A DNA stretch of 19,410 nt from assembly GCA_038046645.1 (NCBI GenBank), contig JBBSVU010000001.1, positions 62,848-82,257 of the forward strand, written 5' to 3'. This document shows, piece by piece, positions 7,094 to 17,248 of the stretch. The notes under the pieces are model-generated. The model did not search any database. It worked only from the letters and a program-made list of their open reading frames with translations, and was not told where the DNA came from. Each line of letters opens with the position of its first letter. Positions within the stretch are counted from its first letter, which is position 1. The position numbers and the translations under genes are program-made. The DNA is from an archaeon. GTDB lineage: Archaea > Iainarchaeota > Iainarchaeia > Iainarchaeales > 0-14-0-20-34-12.

Positions 7094-8002
7094 TTGGATT
7101 CAGACATTGTGAAGAAATACCTAAAGGCCGGGGAAATTTTAAAAGAAACACAGGAAGAAGCAAGAAAGATAATTAAAAGCGAAGCAAAATTGTTGGAAAT
7201 AGCTGAAAGCATAGAAAAATTCATTGAGAAAAAAGGCGGGAAGCCAGCTTTTCCAGTAAATCTTTCATTTAACAATGAAGCAGCGCACCGCACAGCTGAC
7301 ATAAATGATGAATTAACAATAAAAAAAGAGGATGTTTTGAAGGTAGATATTGGGGTGCAAGTTGACGGATATATAGCTGATTCTGCATTTACAGTAAACC
7401 TTTCAGGCGAATGGAAAAAAATGATTAAAGTAAATGAAACTGCTTTGAATGAAGCACTAAAACTTGTGCAGGAAAATGGCGCTGGTTTAGAAATAAAAAA
7501 AATTGGCGAAATAATTGAAAAAACAATTAAAGAGGCGGGATTTAAACCTGTGCAAAATCTTACAGGGCATGGATTGGAAAAATATATGCAGCATGCTCCG
7601 CCAAGCATCCCAAACATAGCAACGAATGATTCAAAAAGATTTGAAGATAACAAGGTTTATGCAATTGAGCCTTTTGTGACAAATGGCTCTGGCTTTGTAA
7701 AAGAAGGGTCTGCCTGCCAGATCTTCATGGCAGATGAAGTAAAGCCAACAAGGGACAGAAATGCACGCAAGATAATGGAATTAATTTTAAAAGAATATGA
7801 AACCTTGCCATTTGCCGAGCGCTGGATTTCAGATAAAATAAAAATGAGTGAATTTGAAAGAAAAATTGCTTTTAGGGAATTGATGCAAAAAAAATGCATC
7901 AGGTCTTATCCAATACTAAAAGATGAGAATGGCTGCATTGTTACGCAGGCAGAAAATTCCTTTTTAATAAATGACGGAAAAGTAATCTTGCTTGTAAAAT
8001 AG
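7094..8002 (+). CDS. map: Methionine aminopeptidase type II (TTG start)
   Basis: AFPVNLS, AAH, DIGVQVDGYIAD, GHGL, AIEPF, type II insert LPFAERW; GGTGAT at 7085-7090. Confidence 0.95.
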   Translation: MDSDIVKKYLKAGEILKETQEEARKIIKSEAKLLEIAESIEKFIEKKGGKPAFPVNLSFNNEAAHRTADINDELTIKKEDVLKVDIGVQVDGYIADSAFTVNLSGEWKKMIKVNETALNEALKLVQENGAGLEIKKIGEIIEKTIKEAGFKPVQNLTGHGLEKYMQHAPPSIPNIATNDSKRFEDNKVYAIEPFVTNGSGFVKEGSACQIFMADEVKPTRDRNARKIMELILKEYETLPFAERWISDKIKMSEFERKIAFRELMQKKCIRSYPILKDENGCIVTQAENSFLINDGKVILLVK

Positions 8003-8041
8003 ATTAATAATTTGTCTTATTTCAATAGTTATATAATCAAA

Positions 8042-8059
8042 GCCCTCATAGTATAATGG
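8042..8059 (+). pseudogene. 5' remnant of a tRNA gene (acceptor strand plus part of the D arm)
   Basis: GCCCTCA TA GTAT AATGG fits tRNA positions 1-19 (U8, A9, G10, A14, G18G19); GCCCTCA pairs with TGGGGGC at 9382-9388. Confidence 0.5.
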
Positions 8060-8099
8060 GTGGAAATGAATATAATAGGTTACTACTAATTAACTCATA

Positions 8100-9296
8100 A
8101 TGACTAGAATATCCTTAGATAAAAAAAATAGAGAGAAGCTATTCAAATTACTAAAAAAACAATATGGCACTCTATCATACTTCAAATTAGCTAAAAAGAT
8201 AGGGGTGCCTTACAAAAGCTTACAAAACTGGATCTATGGGGAACGCCTAATCCCTACAGGAATAATCCCAAACAAGTTACTAAATAAAATAAAAATTGAG
8301 CAGATAAGGGAAAATAATTGGGGGCAAATAAAGGGGGGGCTTATTGGAGGCAAAATTGCCATTAAAAAACTTTTAAGCAAATATTCTAAAAAAGAGTTAA
8401 TTAAATGGAGAAAAAATATTGGCAAGAAAGGTGCAGCAAAAGCAAATAAAACACTTAAAAAATTAAAACATAAAAACCCCGATTATTTTTATATACTGCT
8501 AAGAAAAAAGAAATTTGCAAAAAATTTTCAAAAATTGAGTAAAAAGAAATTGCAAAAAAAGGAGATAATGCTAGACACCAAAAGCATACCTTACAGCCCT
8601 ATTGATATTAAAAAAGAGATTAGATTGCCCACTAAATTAACTCCTGAATTGGCAGAGATTATTGGGGCACATACTGGAGATGGGACACTTTCAACAAAAA
8701 GATATTATTTTTCAATAAGAACTAGCATATTTGAAGAGGAATATTTCACAAAACACGTTTTTCCCCTATATAAACGAACGTTTAACATTAATTTAAAATT
8801 ACTAAAAAGACCACCTATCTGCGGTTTTGAAACAAGTTCAAAAGCAATACATTATTTTAAAAATCAGATATTTGGTCTGCCCATAGGCACCAAAACGCAC
8901 AAAATAGGAGTATCTCCATTAATCTCAGAAAGTAATGATAAAAAAATAATGGGTGCTTTTTTGAGAGGAGTGTTTGACACAGATGGTTGTGTTTATTTCT
9001 CCAAACATCAAACATATCCAGTATTAAGCATTACTGTCAAATCAAAAAAAGCTATAAAAGGGATGGGATTGCTACTTAAAAAACTAGGATATGATCCACA
9101 TATAAACCTTAAGAGTTATACTGTTTATTTAAATGGGGTACTGAAATTCAAGAAATGGCTTGATGAAATTGGAACAAAAAACCCAAAACATCAAAAAAGA
9201 ATAAATAAAATAAAGGAAAAACTTCCTTGGGCGGAGATCGAAAAAACCTTAAATGAAATTTCAAATATTCAAGCAACCGATGGTTCCGTGGTGTAA
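8100..9296 (+). CDS. Free-standing double-motif LAGLIDADG (DOD/intein-type) endonuclease with N-terminal HTH; stop codon inside tRNA-Arg
   Basis: Motifs ELAEIIGAHTGDG and AFLRGVFDTDG; HTH-like YFKLAKKIGVPYKSLQNWIYG; no intein splicing termini. Confidence 0.9.
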   Translation: MTRISLDKKNREKLFKLLKKQYGTLSYFKLAKKIGVPYKSLQNWIYGERLIPTGIIPNKLLNKIKIEQIRENNWGQIKGGLIGGKIAIKKLLSKYSKKELIKWRKNIGKKGAAKANKTLKKLKHKNPDYFYILLRKKKFAKNFQKLSKKKLQKKEIMLDTKSIPYSPIDIKKEIRLPTKLTPELAEIIGAHTGDGTLSTKRYYFSIRTSIFEEEYFTKHVFPLYKRTFNINLKLLKRPPICGFETSSKAIHYFKNQIFGLPIGTKTHKIGVSPLISESNDKKIMGAFLRGVFDTDGCVYFSKHQTYPVLSITVKSKKAIKGMGLLLKKLGYDPHINLKSYTVYLNGVLKFKKWLDEIGTKNPKHQKRINKIKEKLPWAEIEKTLNEISNIQATDGSVV

Positions 9297-9353
9297 TGGA
9301 AAACATAGTGGCCTGCGGAGCTACTGACTCGGGTTCGAATCCCGACGGAACCA
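9282..9353 (+). tRNA. tRNA-Arg(GCG)
   Basis: GGTTCCG/CGGAACC acceptor, GTGGC-CTGCGGA-GCTAC anticodon arm, TCGGG-TTCGAAT-CCCGA T arm. Confidence 0.96.
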
Positions 9354-9370
9354 ATATGTAATTAAGTAAG

Positions 9371-9389
9371 TCAGATCCCAGTGGGGGCA
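9371..9389 (+). pseudogene. 3' remnant of a tRNA gene (T loop, T stem 3' strand, acceptor 3' strand, discriminator)
   Basis: TCAGAT CCCAG TGGGGGC A has tRNA 3'-end spacing; it matches no intact tRNA here but pairs with 8042-8048. Confidence 0.55.
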
Positions 9390-9448
9390 AGCCCCTTTCT
9401 TTTCTTGCGAAGAAAAGAAAGGCCCTTGGGTTCAAAGAAAAGAAACTA
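9390..9448 (+). repeat. Pyrimidine/purine hairpin element, copy A
   Basis: CCTTTCTTTTCTT-GCG-AAGAAAAGAAAGG (9394-9422) then GGTTCAAAGAAAAGAA; closely matches 9786-9843. Confidence 0.85.
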
Positions 9449-9493
9449 TTTAATTAGCTTTTAGTCAAGTATGTTATACTAAAGATCAGTTAA

Positions 9494-9577
9494 GCACGGG
9501 TTGGAGAGTGGCCTAATCCATCGGCTTTAGGGGCCGACGCCTTAGTGGCTTCGCAGGTTCGAATCCTGTCCCGTGCA
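9494..9577 (+). tRNA. tRNA-Leu(TAG)
   Basis: GCACGGG/CCCGTGC acceptor, TCGGC-TTTAGGG-GCCGA anticodon arm, long variable arm, TTCGAAT T loop. Confidence 0.96.
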
Positions 9578-9785
9578 AAACCATTGCGAAGCAATGGTTG
9601 GGCAGTATGTTAATATCAAGAAAATATTATTCTTTGATAAAACTTTCTTTTTAAGAAAGTTTTGAATCCTGTCCCGTGCACTGCCAACCGAAGGTTGGCA
9701 CTGAACAGCATAAGTAATATTATGCAAAATATTATTCTTTGATAAAACTTTCTTTCTAAGAAAGTTTTGAAGACTGTCCCGTGCA
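9578..9785 (+). repeat. Two tandem ~104-bp units, each ending in a copy of the tRNA-Leu 3' end
   Basis: GAATCCTGTCCCGTGCA (9561-9577) repeats at 9664-9680 (17/17) and 9769-9785 (15/17); 9621-9680 vs 9726-9785 match 57/60. Confidence 0.9.
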
Positions 9786-9843
9786 AACCCCTTTCTTTTC
9801 TTAGAAAGAAAAGAAAGGCCTTTTGGTTCAAAGAAAAGAACTA
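9786..9843 (+). repeat. Pyrimidine/purine hairpin element, copy B
   Basis: CCTTTCTTTTCTT-AGA-AAGAAAAGAAAGG (9790-9818) then GGTTCAAAGAAAAGAA. Confidence 0.85.
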
Positions 9844-9881
9844 ACTAAAAAGAATAATTTAAAGAAAACTGATAAGATAAC

Positions 9882-10766
9882 CTAGCTTTTTTCCTTTGAA
9901 ATAGTAATAATTACCACTCCAACTAATGCAAGTAAAATACCTAAGTATTGCACCAGAGCAAGAACCTCTGCAAATAAAATAAAGGAACCTATTGCAGTTA
10001 TTATTGGTGCAAATACCTCAATTAACGAACCAAGTATGGCTTTTATCCTTTTTAATGATTCATAATAAAACAGGTACGGCACTAATGTGCCTGTTACAAC
10101 AATGCCAAACAAAAGCAGGAAATCATTAAAACTTATTTGGAATAGCTCAGTGACATTTGAGAATAACAATAAAGGAATCAGAAAAATCGTCCCTGAAATA
10201 ATCCTTACTGTGAGTATGGTCAATGAAGATAAAGATTTTGTCAAATAACGGCCTAAAACAGTGCAAATAGCAAAACTAAAACAAGAAAATAAAGACAAAA
10301 GTATTCCTTGCACAGTTATATTAAAATCAGCATTCCCTAGGCCCATCATCAAGATAGCAATTAGGATTAGGCAAGTGGCAAATAACTCTTTTTTATTAAT
10401 GGTTTCCTTTAGGAAAATCCAGCCCAAAAGCAAAACAAAGATAGGCTGCATCTGCACTATTGTAGTAGACAGGGTAGGGCCAATAAATCCAATTGCATAA
10501 ATAAAAGACAGCCAACCCAAAATTATCCCAAAAAATCCTACTGAAATAGCCAGCAACTTTACCTTAGGTGAAACTTTAGAAAATTCACTAACCTTTTTAG
10601 CATGAACAAATAGGGGAAGAATAAACAAAAAAGACATTAGATAAACAGCAAAGGATAAGGTAATTGGGGAAAATTTGTGGGATAAAAATTTTAAGATTAA
10701 GGAATATGATCCAAAGCCAAGGCTTGCTAATAGCATTAGCAGTATTCCCTTAGTCCTTTCATCCAT
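9882..10766 (-). CDS. EamA/DMT family transporter
   Basis: 294 aa, about 10 TM helices in two repeats; motifs QPIFVLLLGWIFLKE and PIITAIGSFILFAE. Confidence 0.92.
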   Translation of the reverse strand: MDERTKGILLMLLASLGFGSYSLILKFLSHKFSPITLSFAVYLMSFLFILPLFVHAKKVSEFSKVSPKVKLLAISVGFFGIILGWLSFIYAIGFIGPTLSTTIVQMQPIFVLLLGWIFLKETINKKELFATCLILIAILMMGLGNADFNITVQGILLSLFSCFSFAICTVLGRYLTKSLSSLTILTVRIISGTIFLIPLLLFSNVTELFQISFNDFLLLFGIVVTGTLVPYLFYYESLKRIKAILGSLIEVFAPIITAIGSFILFAEVLALVQYLGILLALVGVVIITISKEKS

Positions 10767-10900: not shown

Positions 10901-10964
10901 ATTCTCTTTTCTTTTACAAACCTATTTTTTCTTTTCTCTTAGAAAGAGAAAAGAAAAAACGGTT
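10901..10964 (-). repeat. Pyrimidine/purine hairpin element, copy C, directly upstream of tRNA-Pro
   Basis: 16-bp stem 10925-10940/10944-10959 with 3-nt loop and a distal TTCTCTTTTCTTTT tract. Confidence 0.75.
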
Positions 10965-11396: not shown

Positions 11397-11469
11397 GGCT
11401 GCGGTAGTACAATGGCTAGTATCTAGGGCTGTGGACCCTTGGAACCGAGTTCGATTCTCGGCCGCGGCC
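11397..11469 (+). tRNA. tRNA-His(GTG) with genomically encoded G-1
   Basis: G-GCTGCGG/CCGCGGC-C acceptor with C73, TAGGG-CTGTGGA-CCCTT anticodon arm, TTCGATT T loop. Confidence 0.95.
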
Positions 11470-11476
11470 TTTCTAC

Positions 11477-12144: not shown

Positions 12145-13416
12145 ATGTTGCAGACAATACGCGGAATGCGTGATTTAGAACCTCAGTTGGCAAGGAAGAA
12201 AAACTTCGTATTAGGCATATGCAAATCTGTTTTTGAGAAATATGGATTTAAGCCAATAGAAACACCGGCAGTAGAATATTTGGAATTATTGACAAAAAAG
12301 GGTTCTGCAGGTGCAGAAATTGAAAAAGAAATTTATGCTTTTGAAGACAAATCCAACAGAAAATTAGGGTTAAGGTTTGACTTAACTGTTCCATTGGCAA
12401 GATATGTTGCTTCAAATCCAACGTTAAGATTGCCATTTAAAAGATATCAAATTGGTTCTGTGTACAGGTATGACAGGCCGCAAGAGAAAAGATACAGGGA
12501 ATTTACCCAGGCAGATATTGATATAGTTGGAACAGAGTCAATCCTTGCGGAATTTGAGATTATTGCTGTTGTGATTGAAACATGCCAAAAAATCGGTTTG
12601 AAGAATTTTTATGTTAAAATAAACTCAAGAAAATTGCTTGAAGAAATTGCAAAATGCTGCAACATCCCAAATGACAAAATAAAGGAATGCTTCAGGTGCA
12701 TTGACAAATTAGATAAAATTGGCTGGGAAGGGGTTCAGAAAGAATTGCAAGCATATGGTTTGGATACAAAAATCTGCGAGATTGTAAAAAATAATAATTT
12801 TGAAAGTACAATAAAAATGATTGAGAAGGGCAAGGGCAATTCTGAATGCATAAAAGAACTGAAAGAACTGTTTGAATTATTGAAAAAATTCTCTCTTGAC
12901 AAATATGTGAAATTAGATTTGAGTTTAGCGCGCGGATTGGAATATTATACTGGCATAGTTTTTGAAATTGTTGCTGACGGCCCAAGTATAGGAGGAGGGG
13001 GGAGATATGATAAATTAATTGGCACTTATGGCAGCAAGGATGTTCCTGCTGTCGGCATTTCCTTTGGAATTGACCGTGTCATAGACAATATGCAAAAAGA
13101 CTTTGGAACAGAATCAAAAATTTTTATTATCCCTGCAAATGAAAATGTGAGAATTCAGTCATTAGAATTTGTGCAGGAATTGAGGGAAAATAATATTGCG
13201 AGCGAAATTGATTTAATGGATAGGAATATTTCAAAGAATCTGGATTATGCAAATAAGGAAGGCATTCCTTTTGTGATAGTATTGGGGGATAAAGAACTGA
13301 AAGAAAAGAAGTTTTCCCTGAAGGATATGAAAACAGGAAAAGAAACTCTGTTGAAATTGGATGAAATTGGAAAATTGAAAGAGATTATTGAAAAATATAG
13401 TAAAGGATATAAATAG
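12145..13416 (+). CDS. hisS: Histidyl-tRNA synthetase
   Basis: RGMRD, LRFDLTVPLAR, YRYDRPQEKRYREFTQ, RGLEYYTG, GGGRYD and a C-terminal anticodon-binding domain. Confidence 0.97.
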   Translation: MLQTIRGMRDLEPQLARKKNFVLGICKSVFEKYGFKPIETPAVEYLELLTKKGSAGAEIEKEIYAFEDKSNRKLGLRFDLTVPLARYVASNPTLRLPFKRYQIGSVYRYDRPQEKRYREFTQADIDIVGTESILAEFEIIAVVIETCQKIGLKNFYVKINSRKLLEEIAKCCNIPNDKIKECFRCIDKLDKIGWEGVQKELQAYGLDTKICEIVKNNNFESTIKMIEKGKGNSECIKELKELFELLKKFSLDKYVKLDLSLARGLEYYTGIVFEIVADGPSIGGGGRYDKLIGTYGSKDVPAVGISFGIDRVIDNMQKDFGTESKIFIIPANENVRIQSLEFVQELRENNIASEIDLMDRNISKNLDYANKEGIPFVIVLGDKELKEKKFSLKDMKTGKETLLKLDEIGKLKEIIEKYSKGYK

Positions 13417-13532
13417 GGAAACATAATTGGTCCTTTACTGCCTAGCAAAAGATAATAAACAATCTCAAAATTAAATTCTTTTGCTATAGATACTATTAAA
13501 ATTCTTGTTTTGTGAGAATATATAGAACTAAT

Positions 13533-13619
13533 GCCCTATTAGCGCAGTGGTTAGCGCACGTGCTTGGTATCTATTGAACAAATAGCACGGGGTCCCGGGT
13601 TCAATTCCCGGATAGGGCT
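13533..13619 (+). tRNA. tRNA-Thr(GGT) with a 14-nt intron at 37/38 (13570-13583)
   Basis: GCCCTAT/ATAGGGC acceptor; CGTGC-TTGGTA[TCTATTGAACAAAT]A-GCACG; CCGGG-TTCAATT-CCCGG. Confidence 0.93.
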
Positions 13620-14602
13620 CTAACTTTAGCTAAATTTCTTTCATTAGAAAAACCTATTAGCTGCATCCATTTTTCTAATTGTGCTAGTCCATAAACTTCA
13701 ATACAATAGCTGCACCTTTTAACATTCTCATGAGTATACAAACTAAATTCCTTTGACAAAATTTCTTTAAGTTGTAAATATAAGTTCTTGCTTACTGTCT
13801 GTAAAGTAATCCGCGGATAACATCCTTTATATGTTGGTCTTTCATCCAGATAGACACAACCATCAGTATCAAAAATTCCCCTAATTGTTGCAAAAATAAA
13901 TTTTTTATCAGATGCGAGTATCACATCTGGAATTTTTATTGTAAAAGACTTTTTACCAACCGGAAAATCAAATTTATTAATTAAGAAATGAAATAATGGC
14001 TTAGAATGAAATCTAACCCTCACAACATTACCTAAAGGTACTTCGATTATTTTTCCTTTAAGAATGCTTATGCTATGTTCAAGGTTGTTAGTTAAATAAT
14101 TAATATATTGTTTGTCTTTTTTTAGATTACCAACTACTTCAATAAGATACCTATTTTCATATTTCCCTATAAATCCATCTCCAATTAAAGCACCAATAAA
14201 TTCACAAATAATCTCTGACAAAGGCATATTTATGCGTGAGAAATGATGATACCTTCTCCAATTGCTTTTTATTGCCTTCATTCTTCCCTTCTCAAATATT
14301 TCGGGGTACTGTTTGGAAGTAATTTTCCCACCCAATTTAGCTCCCCAATTTGCTTCTTTTGTTGAAATATTTTGCAGAAAATACTGTTGCTTTGATTTTT
14401 CTAAAGCAGAATTAAGTTCAGCAAACAAATCACAGGGCAATGTGTTAATGCCATATTGATATCTTTGAAAAACACTTCGGTAAATGCCTAACGTATTCGC
14501 TAAATCTCTCCAAGTTTTAGCAGCATAAGAACTTCTTATGTCTTGGAAAAAATCTTCCCTTATTTTGTCATCTTTAAAATAAACTCTCGTATTTTTATCC
14601 AT
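13601..14602 (-). CDS. Free-standing double-motif LAGLIDADG endonuclease with N-terminal HTH; stop codon antisense within the tRNA-Thr T loop
   Basis: Motifs ICEFIGALIGDG and ATIRGIFDTDG; HTH-like WRDLANTLGIYRSVFQRYQYG; NWGxxxGG linker shared with 8100-9296. Confidence 0.9.
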   Translation of the reverse strand: MDKNTRVYFKDDKIREDFFQDIRSSYAAKTWRDLANTLGIYRSVFQRYQYGINTLPCDLFAELNSALEKSKQQYFLQNISTKEANWGAKLGGKITSKQYPEIFEKGRMKAIKSNWRRYHHFSRINMPLSEIICEFIGALIGDGFIGKYENRYLIEVVGNLKKDKQYINYLTNNLEHSISILKGKIIEVPLGNVVRVRFHSKPLFHFLINKFDFPVGKKSFTIKIPDVILASDKKFIFATIRGIFDTDGCVYLDERPTYKGCYPRITLQTVSKNLYLQLKEILSKEFSLYTHENVKRCSYCIEVYGLAQLEKWMQLIGFSNERNLAKVRALSGN

Positions 14603-14843
14603 ATAACCAACTTACCATAAACTAATTACTCTAAGAATCAGTAATTTCTCAAATAACCTCTTTTCGGAAGAGCAGATTTCCCCTGAAAAATATCTTTTTA
14701 TAGATACGCAAATAGGGCATGGCTACTTCATTTTTGTCTTATTGTGGAACTTCAGTGAAACAAAAGAAGCAAAAGGACTCAGCATTTAGCGTAAAGCAAC
14801 CCTTAAAAATACTTAAATTTTAATAATAACATAGTGAATTGAA

Positions 14844-15533
14844 ATGTCCTTTGAAAAGCTTGATGATAGATTGGTTGAATTGCTTATTGATAAATACATT
14901 AAGCATAATGATGTTGTTGCATTTGGTTCGAGCATCCATTCAGAACGCTTTGTAAAGAAAATGGCCTTGAAAGCTGAAACTGAAAATTTGCATATTAAGA
15001 TAGTGCCAACCTCTGCAAGAATTGCAGAAATTGCACATTCTTTAGGATTAAATATTGTTTCAATAAATGATGCTGAAATAGATATTTCAATTGAATTTGC
15101 TGAAATTATCGATAATGACTTTAATTTTGTAAAAAGAGACACTTTATCATTAGTAAGGGATAAAATGATAGCACAAAGTGCTGCAAAATTAATAGCAATT
15201 TCTCAAAAGGAGAACTTTGTAAAGCATTTATATGGCATTGTGCCATTTGAAATAACCCAATTTGGCTGGAAAAGGACACTTGCGCAGTTAGAACAATTTG
15301 GTGCAAGCAGCTTGAGAAAACAGGACAACAAAGCAAGCATTACTGAAAGCGGAAATTATTTGGCTGATGTTGATATAAGGGTGAAATTCTTGCCGGAAGA
15401 TATTGATTATGCAGCAAAGAATATTCCTGGTGTTTTAGAAACCGGCTTATTTATTGGGTGTGCAGATAAAGCATTGCTTTATTCTGCAAAAGGGATTGAG
15501 GTTAAAGGATTAATGCACGATAAAATAAAATAG
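14844..15533 (+). CDS. rpiA: Ribose-5-phosphate isomerase A-like protein with degenerate active-site motifs
   Basis: VPTS, VPFEI, ITESGNYLAD and IPGVLETGLF fit RpiA; GTGST, DGAD and KGGG are not conserved. Confidence 0.75.
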   Translation: MSFEKLDDRLVELLIDKYIKHNDVVAFGSSIHSERFVKKMALKAETENLHIKIVPTSARIAEIAHSLGLNIVSINDAEIDISIEFAEIIDNDFNFVKRDTLSLVRDKMIAQSAAKLIAISQKENFVKHLYGIVPFEITQFGWKRTLAQLEQFGASSLRKQDNKASITESGNYLADVDIRVKFLPEDIDYAAKNIPGVLETGLFIGCADKALLYSAKGIEVKGLMHDKIK

Positions 15534-17180: not shown

Positions 17181-17248
17181 GGTTTCTCTTTTTCTTTTGA
17201 TAAGCCTAAATTTTCTTTTTCTCTTTCGCAAAGAGAAAAAGAAAAGTT
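17181..17248 (-). repeat. Pyrimidine/purine hairpin element, copy D, directly upstream of tRNA-Glu
   Basis: 16-bp stem 17211-17226/17230-17245; on the minus strand the loop is GCG and the tail TCAAAAGAAAAAGAGAAAC, as in copy A. Confidence 0.8.

Follow-up and report, generated by a model that had tools for sequence, protein, structure and literature searches.

How does a complete transfer RNA (tRNA) gene, together with the gene of a LAGLIDADG endonuclease, come to lie between what look like the two ends of another tRNA gene? The question is raised by a stretch of 19,410 nucleotides (hereafter the window; G000:C1:62848-82257) from an AT-rich genome of 1.17 Mb (G000; 25 contigs, 89% complete), which carries a family B DNA polymerase and an archaeal-type set of intron-bearing tRNAs, occurs in groundwater metagenomes and appears to belong to an ultra-small (DPANN-like) archaeon. 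In the window the order is map (methionine aminopeptidase), a 5' tRNA fragment, one open reading frame (ORF) 398 amino acids long, tRNA-Arg(GCG), a 3' tRNA fragment, a hairpin element and tRNA-Leu(TAG). Comparison with a genome of the same genus indicates that a cassette with an endonuclease gene and a foreign tRNA-Arg(GCG) has replaced the middle of a resident tRNA-Arg(GCG) gene, both ends of which were left behind as stubs.

The 5' stub (8042-8068, plus strand) comprises the 5' strand of the acceptor stem and the D arm, that is, positions 1 to about 26 of the tRNA. According to its match in the related genome the core at 8042-8059 (GCCCTCATAGTATAATGG) is certain and the extension at 8060-8068 probable. 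The 3' stub (9371-9389, plus strand; TCAGATCCCAGTGGGGGCA) begins with a decayed T loop (9371-9375), followed at 9376-9389 by the 3' strand of the T stem, the 3' strand of the acceptor stem and the discriminator base. GCCCTCA of the first stub pairs with TGGGGGC of the second over all seven base pairs, one of them G-U.

What stood here before the insertion can be seen in G001, the genome of the same genus. There, 31 bases after map, lies an intact tRNA-Arg(GCG) of 73 nucleotides (L040:2087-2159; called by ARAGORN, and by Infernal at full length with 59.4 bits), which begins GCCCCTA, ends CCCAGTGGGGGCA and is followed by the same hairpin and tRNA-Leu(TAG), with no LAGLIDADG gene at this map/tRNA-Leu site. 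The 5' stub is identical to the start of this tRNA in 16 of 18 bases (21 of 27 when extended to 8068, about position 26), and the 3' stub at 9376-9389 is identical to its end in 14 of 14, while the T-loop bases 9371-9375 have diverged. About 70 bases 3' of the 3' stub are almost identical to the sequence after the G001 tRNA. Because one intact tRNA at the same site matches both fragments, they are the two ends of one former tRNA-Arg(GCG), which had the same anticodon as its substitute. What lay between them in the resident tRNA, from about position 27 to 53-60, comprised the anticodon arm, the variable loop and the 5' strand of the T stem; it has no counterpart at the window locus and is replaced by 8069-9370, about 1.3 kb. 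Thus a single conserved site, with the same map gene and tRNA-Leu, is filled in G000 and empty in G001.

The initial annotation, made from the letters of the window, had placed the two remnants and their complete acceptor stem with one G-U pair where we find them on re-reading the sequence, and the nuclease gene and intact tRNA-Arg that it saw between them are recovered by Pfam (LAGLIDADG_3), ARAGORN and Infernal. It had proposed that a resident tRNA, perhaps an earlier Arg(GCG), was replaced by a nuclease with a substitute tRNA, and the intact Arg(GCG) at the G001 site agrees with this. It had further predicted a relative with an intact tRNA and no endonuclease, ending CCCAGTGGGGGCA; G001 is that relative, its tRNA beginning GCCCCTA where GCCCCCA or GCCCTCA had been predicted. 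Its caveat that the 5' remnant, lying over a promoter, might be coincidental can be dropped because the fragment is homologous to the G001 tRNA, so its likeness to a tRNA beside a TATA box is no accident, and the possibility it named that the fragments derive from different tRNAs is answered by the single G001 tRNA that both match.

Could the arrangement nevertheless be a chance resemblance or a misassembly? The fragments are short, and the 8-mer TGGGGGCA occurs once more, inside the ORF (about 8319-8326). Even with E up to 10, neither fragment is matched as a tRNA by Infernal, for which both are too short. When the whole genome was searched with up to three mismatches, the 5' fragment had two sites, its own and the start of tRNA-Asp (one for the reversed-pattern control), and the 3' fragment had its own site alone (none for the control). 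The fragments and their flank are, however, homologous to G001, and both junctions are spanned, with zero differences, by contigs from other runs, the left one by X3 and X6 and the right one by X3, X6, X10 and X11, so the layout is not a misassembly; contig X10 comes from the same study as the possible source sample. We therefore regard chance and misassembly as practically out of the question.

A second explanation would be that a split or intron-bearing tRNA is still made from the fragments, which would function as its parts and be joined as RNA, as the perfect 7-base-pair acceptor stem and the many intron-bearing tRNAs of the genome might suggest. Against this, the anticodon arm, the variable loop and the 5' strand of the T stem are gone, and G001 shows the part that was lost. 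An intact copy or a trans-spliced middle piece, for which the initial annotation had advised a search, was not found in G000 by fragment patterns or tRNA scans, nor was a further fragment copy or an extra tRNA-Arg(GCG); the replacement does not require any such piece. The T loop of the 3' stub is decayed, and the two stubs enclose a complete tRNA that has the same anticodon. Paired by eye, the junctions form an A/U-rich duplex of 11 base pairs with a 2-nucleotide bulge, in which no 3-4-3 bulge-helix-bulge was seen. The missing anticodon arm and G001 rule out a split tRNA or a giant intron, and we give this explanation next to no weight.

The tRNA gene carried by the cassette is at 9281-9354 on the plus strand (ARAGORN; 9282-9353 with 61.6 bits by Infernal), and a spacer of 16 nucleotides without counterpart in G001 (9355-9370, plus strand) forms the right end of the inserted DNA. 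The substitute is identical to the resident tRNA of G001 in only 46 of 75 aligned columns. Among 196 genomes of the same order, which served as the set of relatives, its closest matches come from outside its family (88% identity in G040 and 83-84% in several other genomes), and at E 1e-5 neither of the two genomes of its own family has a match. The sequence comparison thus shows the kinship of the substitute to be foreign. It is the single tRNA-Arg(GCG) of G000 by both ARAGORN and Infernal. Of the 210,824 codons counted in 410 long ORFs of this genome, 714 are CGT or CGC. Because no other tRNA-Arg(GCG) was found and its codons are in use, the cell presumably depends on the substitute.

Besides this tRNA the insert contains a TATA-like box and the LAGLIDADG gene, and nothing else. 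The box (AATATAATA; 8069-8077, plus strand) was read from the sequence at the left end of the insert, 23-31 nucleotides before the ATG. Similar A/T boxes stand at the same distance from the start in orthologous cassettes, and it is likely to be the promoter of the endonuclease gene. The gene itself (8100-9296, plus strand; 398 amino acids) is intact and free-standing with its own start, and it is the sole ORF of 60 amino acids or more that fills the insert. Its stop codon sits within the D loop of the following tRNA. Since the frame ends inside the tRNA, the endonuclease and the tRNA are probably one transcription unit.

The protein matches PF14528 (LAGLIDADG_3) in residues 285-338 only, with E 8.1e-09 and 36.1 bits against a cut-off of 22.5. 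It has two LAGLIDADG motifs with the acidic residues present, the first ending GDG (D194) and the second TDG (D295). Across ten orthologues G193, D194, G195, D293 and G296 are invariant and D295 is nearly so, with N in one relative (G174). A sequence search of the PDB at E up to 1 gave no match to the endonuclease. The AlphaFold2 model has a mean confidence score (pLDDT) of 80.6, with residues from about 160 to 390 mostly above 85, and shows the duplicated alpha-beta-beta-alpha-beta-beta-alpha fold of the family. With Foldseek the C-terminal part of about 200 residues matches the TliVMA intein endonuclease, I-Tsp061I (TMt 0.71) and I-DmoI (TMt about 0.7), with E down to 1.9e-10 (6.6e-09 to 1e-06 for I-Tsp061I and I-DmoI). 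The first 170 residues or so are helical, with a helix-turn-helix-like start and no family assignment. With an unbroken frame, both catalytic motifs and the match of the predicted fold, the endonuclease looks functional. Rfam found no group I or II intron, neither in the window at the gathering score nor, with E up to 10, in 7950-9900, and the Pfam scan gave no intein domains. Near its C-terminus the protein has a conserved L-P-W (codons at 9222-9230, plus strand, placed by alignment and ORF ends). In most orthologues the codons for this L-P-W coincide with the first bases of the cassette tRNA; in G000, G184 and G189 they stand 15-22 codons ahead of the present tRNA, where they may have been left by an older partner tRNA or reflect constraint on the protein.

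An element of the integrase type (SSV or pNOB8 type) would be the customary explanation for foreign DNA in a tRNA gene, as tRNA genes are classical integration sites at which partial tRNA copies are left behind (PMC9897764, PMC3293823). The present insert is only about 1.3 kb long and has no integrase gene, its ends do not carry a direct repeat of one part of the tRNA, and the resident tRNA has been destroyed and not reconstituted. Such an integration is in our view very improbable here.

The association of the enzyme with tRNA genes extends beyond the window. Of the 196 genomes of the order, 121 contain a match to the protein at E 1e-8 or better. All of the 13 strongest (E 4.9e-57 or better, the window included; seven families, f1, f2, f8, f10, f20, f23 and f30; 41-49% identity) abut a tRNA-Arg(GCG) that starts within or just after the end of the frame, and at all 13 of these Arg-type loci the frame stops inside the tRNA. 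Nine of these tRNAs were called by ARAGORN and one, with a 40-nucleotide insert in the D loop, by Infernal, while three were recognised by two-piece nhmmer matches and by eye; the latter three have a D-arm intron, one of them with a second intron too. The next matches abut tRNA-His(GTG) in seven cases, and others abut Arg(TCG), Arg(TCT), Gly, Ala and Thr. At 28 of 33 loci a tRNA on the same strand starts from -51 to +239 nucleotides of the end of the match (one has its tRNA on the opposite strand, and at four none was called), and all four free-standing paralogues in G000 abut a tRNA. In a tree of ten Arg-type and four His-type proteins, the latter as outgroup, the two groups stand apart with full support. 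The enzyme clade is thus tied to tRNA identity across seven families. At least three Arg-type cassettes (in G000, G090 and G011) follow map, which fits the conserved order of map and tRNA-Arg(GCG). The spread is patchy: the Arg-type enzyme is present in G000 and not in G001, and of the 17 genomes in genus g31 only 2 contribute to the 13 strong matches.

Stubs are also seen elsewhere. By eye, G189 and G184 have double stubs like those of the window, with a 5' stub that ends in the D loop before the promoter and a 3' stub that begins at the T loop, 65-80 nucleotides past the cassette tRNA; the two pair in 7/7 positions in G189 and 6/7 in G184, with compensatory changes relative to the cassette tRNA. 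G174 has a clear 5' stub (nhmmer E 3e-4). Stub calls at L041, L043 and L045 were made by eye only and are excluded from the evidence. The tree of 14 proteins does not decide whether the double-stub cassettes of G000, G184 and G189 belong to one subgroup. Four of the 13 Arg-type cassette tRNAs (4 of the 12 relatives; L041, L045, L047 and L052, from G048, G090, G088 and G103) have an intron of about 30-45 nucleotides in the D arm or D loop, one of them with a second intron. The intron mode of ARAGORN miscalls two of the three D-arm-intron tRNAs (as Leu and Val) and Infernal at E 0.01 misses L041, L045 and L047, and such tRNAs are likely under-annotated in these genomes.

On these grounds we consider it likely that the protein is a free-standing homing endonuclease specialised on tRNA-Arg(GCG), which cuts the resident gene in or near the lost segment, the break being repaired from a donor of the cassette. 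The ancestor would have had the order map, tRNA-Arg(GCG), hairpin and tRNA-Leu, as kept in G001. A mobile cassette of about 1.3 kb, made up of promoter, LAGLIDADG gene and foreign tRNA-Arg(GCG), would have entered the tRNA-Arg(GCG) gene and displaced about positions 27 to 53-60, leaving the first 26 or so and the last 14-19 or so bases as dead stubs. We infer the cleavage by the enzyme, the position of the cut, the resistance of the substitute and the route of repair from this picture: the enzyme would recognise and cut resident-type tRNA-Arg(GCG) genes in or near the lost segment, and the break would be repaired by copying the cassette from the donor. In the window the conversion tract would have taken in the whole foreign tRNA, with the right join in the resident T loop, giving a stub on each side; many relatives apparently have a cassette that closes with either a substitute 5' part or an entire tRNA. 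The cassette tRNA may escape cutting by its differing sequence or, in the 4 of 12 relatives mentioned, by a D-arm or D-loop intron near the point where the 5' stubs end. When cassette and resident tRNAs were compared by eye for a hint of the cleavage site, no consistent difference was found. With the resident copy destroyed and the sole tRNA for CGU and CGC on the cassette, the cassette could no longer be lost, because the cell needs that tRNA for these codons. More speculatively, cutting the tRNA out of the joint transcript would remove the stop codon of the enzyme and may keep its level low. Homing in the sense of biased inheritance may be indicated, indirectly, by the patchy distribution within genera and the fidelity of enzyme clades to their tRNA in sequence comparisons.

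Several observations weigh against this scenario. Classical homing leaves the target sequence undeleted, and for that reason the loss of about 27-33 bases needs an extra assumption, such as resection or joining through microhomology. With an identity of only 41-49% to its closest relatives, the enzyme gives no sign of very recent transfer; an old insertion followed by vertical descent and repeated loss could explain part of the fidelity of clades to tRNAs. A second pair of filled and empty sites was sought in genus g31 and not obtained: the flank upstream of the G184 cassette recurs in 3 of the 16 other genomes, and synteny stops before any tRNA-Arg. The nhmmer search found 5' stubs at only 3 of 12 loci at E below 5 and missed that of the window itself, the tRNA-Arg(GCG) profile being too insensitive for fragments of 25 nucleotides or less, and most stubs at the other loci are too short for statistics. 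The contigs of four other runs contained the filled form or copies of the hairpin element from unrelated places, and none had an empty allele, although contigs cannot show the absence of an empty allele. Finally, statements on an only copy or a lacking orthologue hold for the assembled parts of G000 and G001 (89% and 74% complete).

In a further alternative, recombination took place independently of the enzyme, for example illegitimately or through decay of a larger element, and the protein is a passenger or a domesticated DNA-binding factor associated with tRNA genes. It would suit this alternative that the target segment was deleted and not simply interrupted, that cleavage by the enzyme is a proposal, and that the G174 orthologue has N in place of the second catalytic D. 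Also the 3' end of the neighbouring tRNA-Leu has two extra copies without a nearby nuclease, so tRNA ends duplicate in this region anyway. However, the insert has no room for another gene, Pfam detected no integrase domain in the 17 ORFs of the window that were scanned, the stubs represent separate 5' and 3' parts without overlap and not direct repeats of att type, and enzyme clades with conserved catalytic motifs track tRNA identity in seven families. We hold recombination without the enzyme to be unlikely, though it deserves to be kept in mind, and prefer replacement by the homing endonuclease.

The map gene (7094-8002, plus strand; Pfam Peptidase_M24, E 1.8e-29), whose protein is 91% identical between G000 and G001, is a conserved upstream neighbour of tRNA-Arg(GCG) in the order, since 20 of the 30 loci scanned have the tRNA no more than 1.5 kb downstream of map. 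In many other families (L012, L014, L015 and others) a conserved ORF of about 310-350 amino acids without Pfam family lies between map and tRNA-Arg(GCG); it is not at this site in G000 or G001. Such ORFs (about 335 amino acids) were considered as endonucleases, but none of the three scanned had a LAGLIDADG match, and they are ordinary neighbours. Downstream, tRNA-Leu(TAG) (9494-9577, plus strand) is a conserved neighbour that also follows tRNA-Arg in G001, and the hairpin element (about 9387/9390 to 9444, plus strand), near-identical in G001, belongs to the original downstream flank; a second hairpin copy is at 9783-9840.

The tRNA scans of G000 with ARAGORN and Infernal showed no gene for Met, Trp, Lys(CTT), Val(TAC), Leu(TAA), Pro(TGG), Ser(TGA) or Arg(TCG/CCG/CCT), and several calls, for example 'SeC', look doubtful. 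These gaps could be due to missing contigs, given the incompleteness of the assembly, or to non-canonical introns missed by the tools.

The last 17-23 or so nucleotides of tRNA-Leu(TAG) occur in three copies at a spacing of about 105 nucleotides (9555-9577, 9658-9680 and 9763-9785), each followed by a different small hairpin, with no nuclease or integrase nearby. G001 has the same triplet (L040:2380-2580) with two hairpins swapped. These copies could be scars of old cassettes or integrations, or a tandem duplication. The hairpin element proper, 58 nucleotides long with pyrimidine and purine arms and a GGTTCAAAGAAAAGAA tail, follows tRNA ends at both of its places in the window (9387-9444 and 9783-9840), and similar hairpins at 10925-10959 and about 17190-17248 precede tRNA-Pro and tRNA-Glu. 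In G001 (L040:3640-3700) one lies within an insert of about 90-100 nucleotides in tRNA-His, while the tRNA-His of the window (11397-11470) is uninterrupted. The element is repeated, as the summed contig depth in other runs rises over it.

A second LAGLIDADG gene (13601-14602, minus strand; 333 amino acids, PF14528) is found in the region 13533-14718. It lies tail to tail with an intron-bearing tRNA-Thr(GGT) (13533-13619, plus strand), the 3' end of which it overlaps. On the minus strand, upstream of the LAGLIDADG gene, 14707-14718 matches the first 12 bases of tRNA-Thr in 11 of 12 positions, with 0.01 such matches expected by chance, and is possibly a 5' stub, on sequence similarity, inverted relative to the full tRNA-Thr gene. 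A query of 12900-15300 had no match to this second cassette in G001, and in G002 it matched only around rpiA (about 14953-15271) and in the first 180 or so query bases; G002 also has a LAGLIDADG gene beside rpiA. The motif GGGAAATCYNCTCTTC stands upstream of three LAGLIDADG paralogues, with its window copy at 14667-14683 on the minus strand. It has 13 sites in G000 against one for a reversed control, at least two of them beside the hairpin element, and with so many sites it is a repeat or regulatory motif of the whole genome that is not peculiar to the cassettes.

Homing endonucleases usually spare their host because the introns or inteins that carry them are spliced out. In the present case harm to the host is avoided in another way, as a needed single-copy tRNA gene is destroyed and a full substitute supplied, so that the element is not easily lost. 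Two genomes of one genus, one with the filled and one with the empty allele, form a clean natural pair of before and after and provide testable substrates, the G001-type and the cassette tRNA. A family of tRNA-tied enzymes present in 121 of 196 genomes may be a major overlooked force in the turnover of tRNA genes and the horizontal exchange of tRNAs, and its members are candidate new site-specific nucleases with targets in tRNA genes. The family may also bear on the origin of non-canonical tRNA introns and fragments in Archaea, for which earlier models involved integrases (Sugahara et al. 2012; PMC3293823). A wider interpretation, which we offer tentatively and would not yet favour, is that this is a natural 'cleave-and-rescue' system of ultra-small archaea, in which isoacceptor-specific LAGLIDADG lineages destroy the resident gene, install a resistant foreign copy and become indispensable. 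If so, such cassettes would drive horizontal replacement of tRNA genes across families, and D-arm introns, tRNA fragments and perhaps the split tRNA genes of Archaea would be by-products.

How does this compare with known systems? The best structural matches of the nuclease core, I-DmoI and I-Tsp061I, are monomeric with two motifs, like the window enzyme, but they sit in rRNA introns that are spliced out, whereas the window enzyme is free-standing and has an N-terminal extension of about 170 residues. Free-standing endonucleases are known for 'intronless homing' (PMC13096335). In phage T4, SegB is a free-standing homing endonuclease among tRNA genes with preferential co-inheritance of flanking tRNA sequence, which resembles the window; it is however a phage GIY-YIG enzyme that lies between tRNA genes and guts none, and the available sections of that paper describe no substitute with stubs (PMC2988022).

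The nearest archaeal case is tRNA-Thr(GGU) of Candidatus Caldiarchaeum subterraneum. This gene is polymorphic in the population, with a 5' fragment (positions 1-27) upstream of an insert of about 1.9 kb, in which an 813-bp ORF stands just before a complete tRNA on the same strand with an extra intron at 24/25 (PMC3293823). The region of the left junction is the same as in the window, and the D-arm and D-loop introns in the cassettes of the relatives are in the region of this intron gain. In contrast to the window, the portion of the report at hand describes neither a 3' stub nor a loss of the middle; its authors took the ORF for the DNA recombinase of a plasmid-like element, with attP and attB sites, and LAGLIDADG is not mentioned there (PMC3293823). 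Fragments of tRNA genes have otherwise been ascribed to integrative elements and CRISPR, in a paper that does not use the word endonuclease (PMC9897764). In the literature searched, with supplementary files outside the search, we found no description of LAGLIDADG-tRNA cassettes in archaea.

In logic, the system is close to the synthetic 'Cleave and Rescue' drives, in which a nuclease is directed against an essential gene and a linked, uncleavable substitute creates dependence. These are engineered with Cas9, in diploid animals and at a place away from the target (PMC6442612), whereas the window cassette lies in its target in a haploid archaeon and its cleaving step is putative. The closest published parallel is provided by the mORFs of fungal mitochondria (Allomyces atp6; Glomus atp6, atp9, cox2 and nad3). 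These are free-standing LAGLIDADG or GIY-YIG genes inserted in a host gene without an intron; they bring a foreign replacement for the part that they displace, the native part remains as an unexpressed stub that matches a close relative, and the insert is more divergent (PMC3630166). The window shares these features, having no intron or intein, a presence/absence polymorphism, stubs that match the relative and a divergent substitute. The hosts of mORFs are however mitochondrial protein genes, of which only the C-terminal part is replaced, in frame (PMC3630166), whereas the host here is a tRNA gene on an archaeal chromosome, with a whole substitute gene, stubs on both sides and a lost native middle. 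The window adds a clean within-genus pair of filled and empty alleles, a whole-gene substitute with two stubs and the lineage associated with Arg(GCG). That a homing endonuclease brings a replacement for what it disrupts is a known principle; what is new is that the replacement is a whole tRNA gene and that this takes place on an archaeal chromosome.

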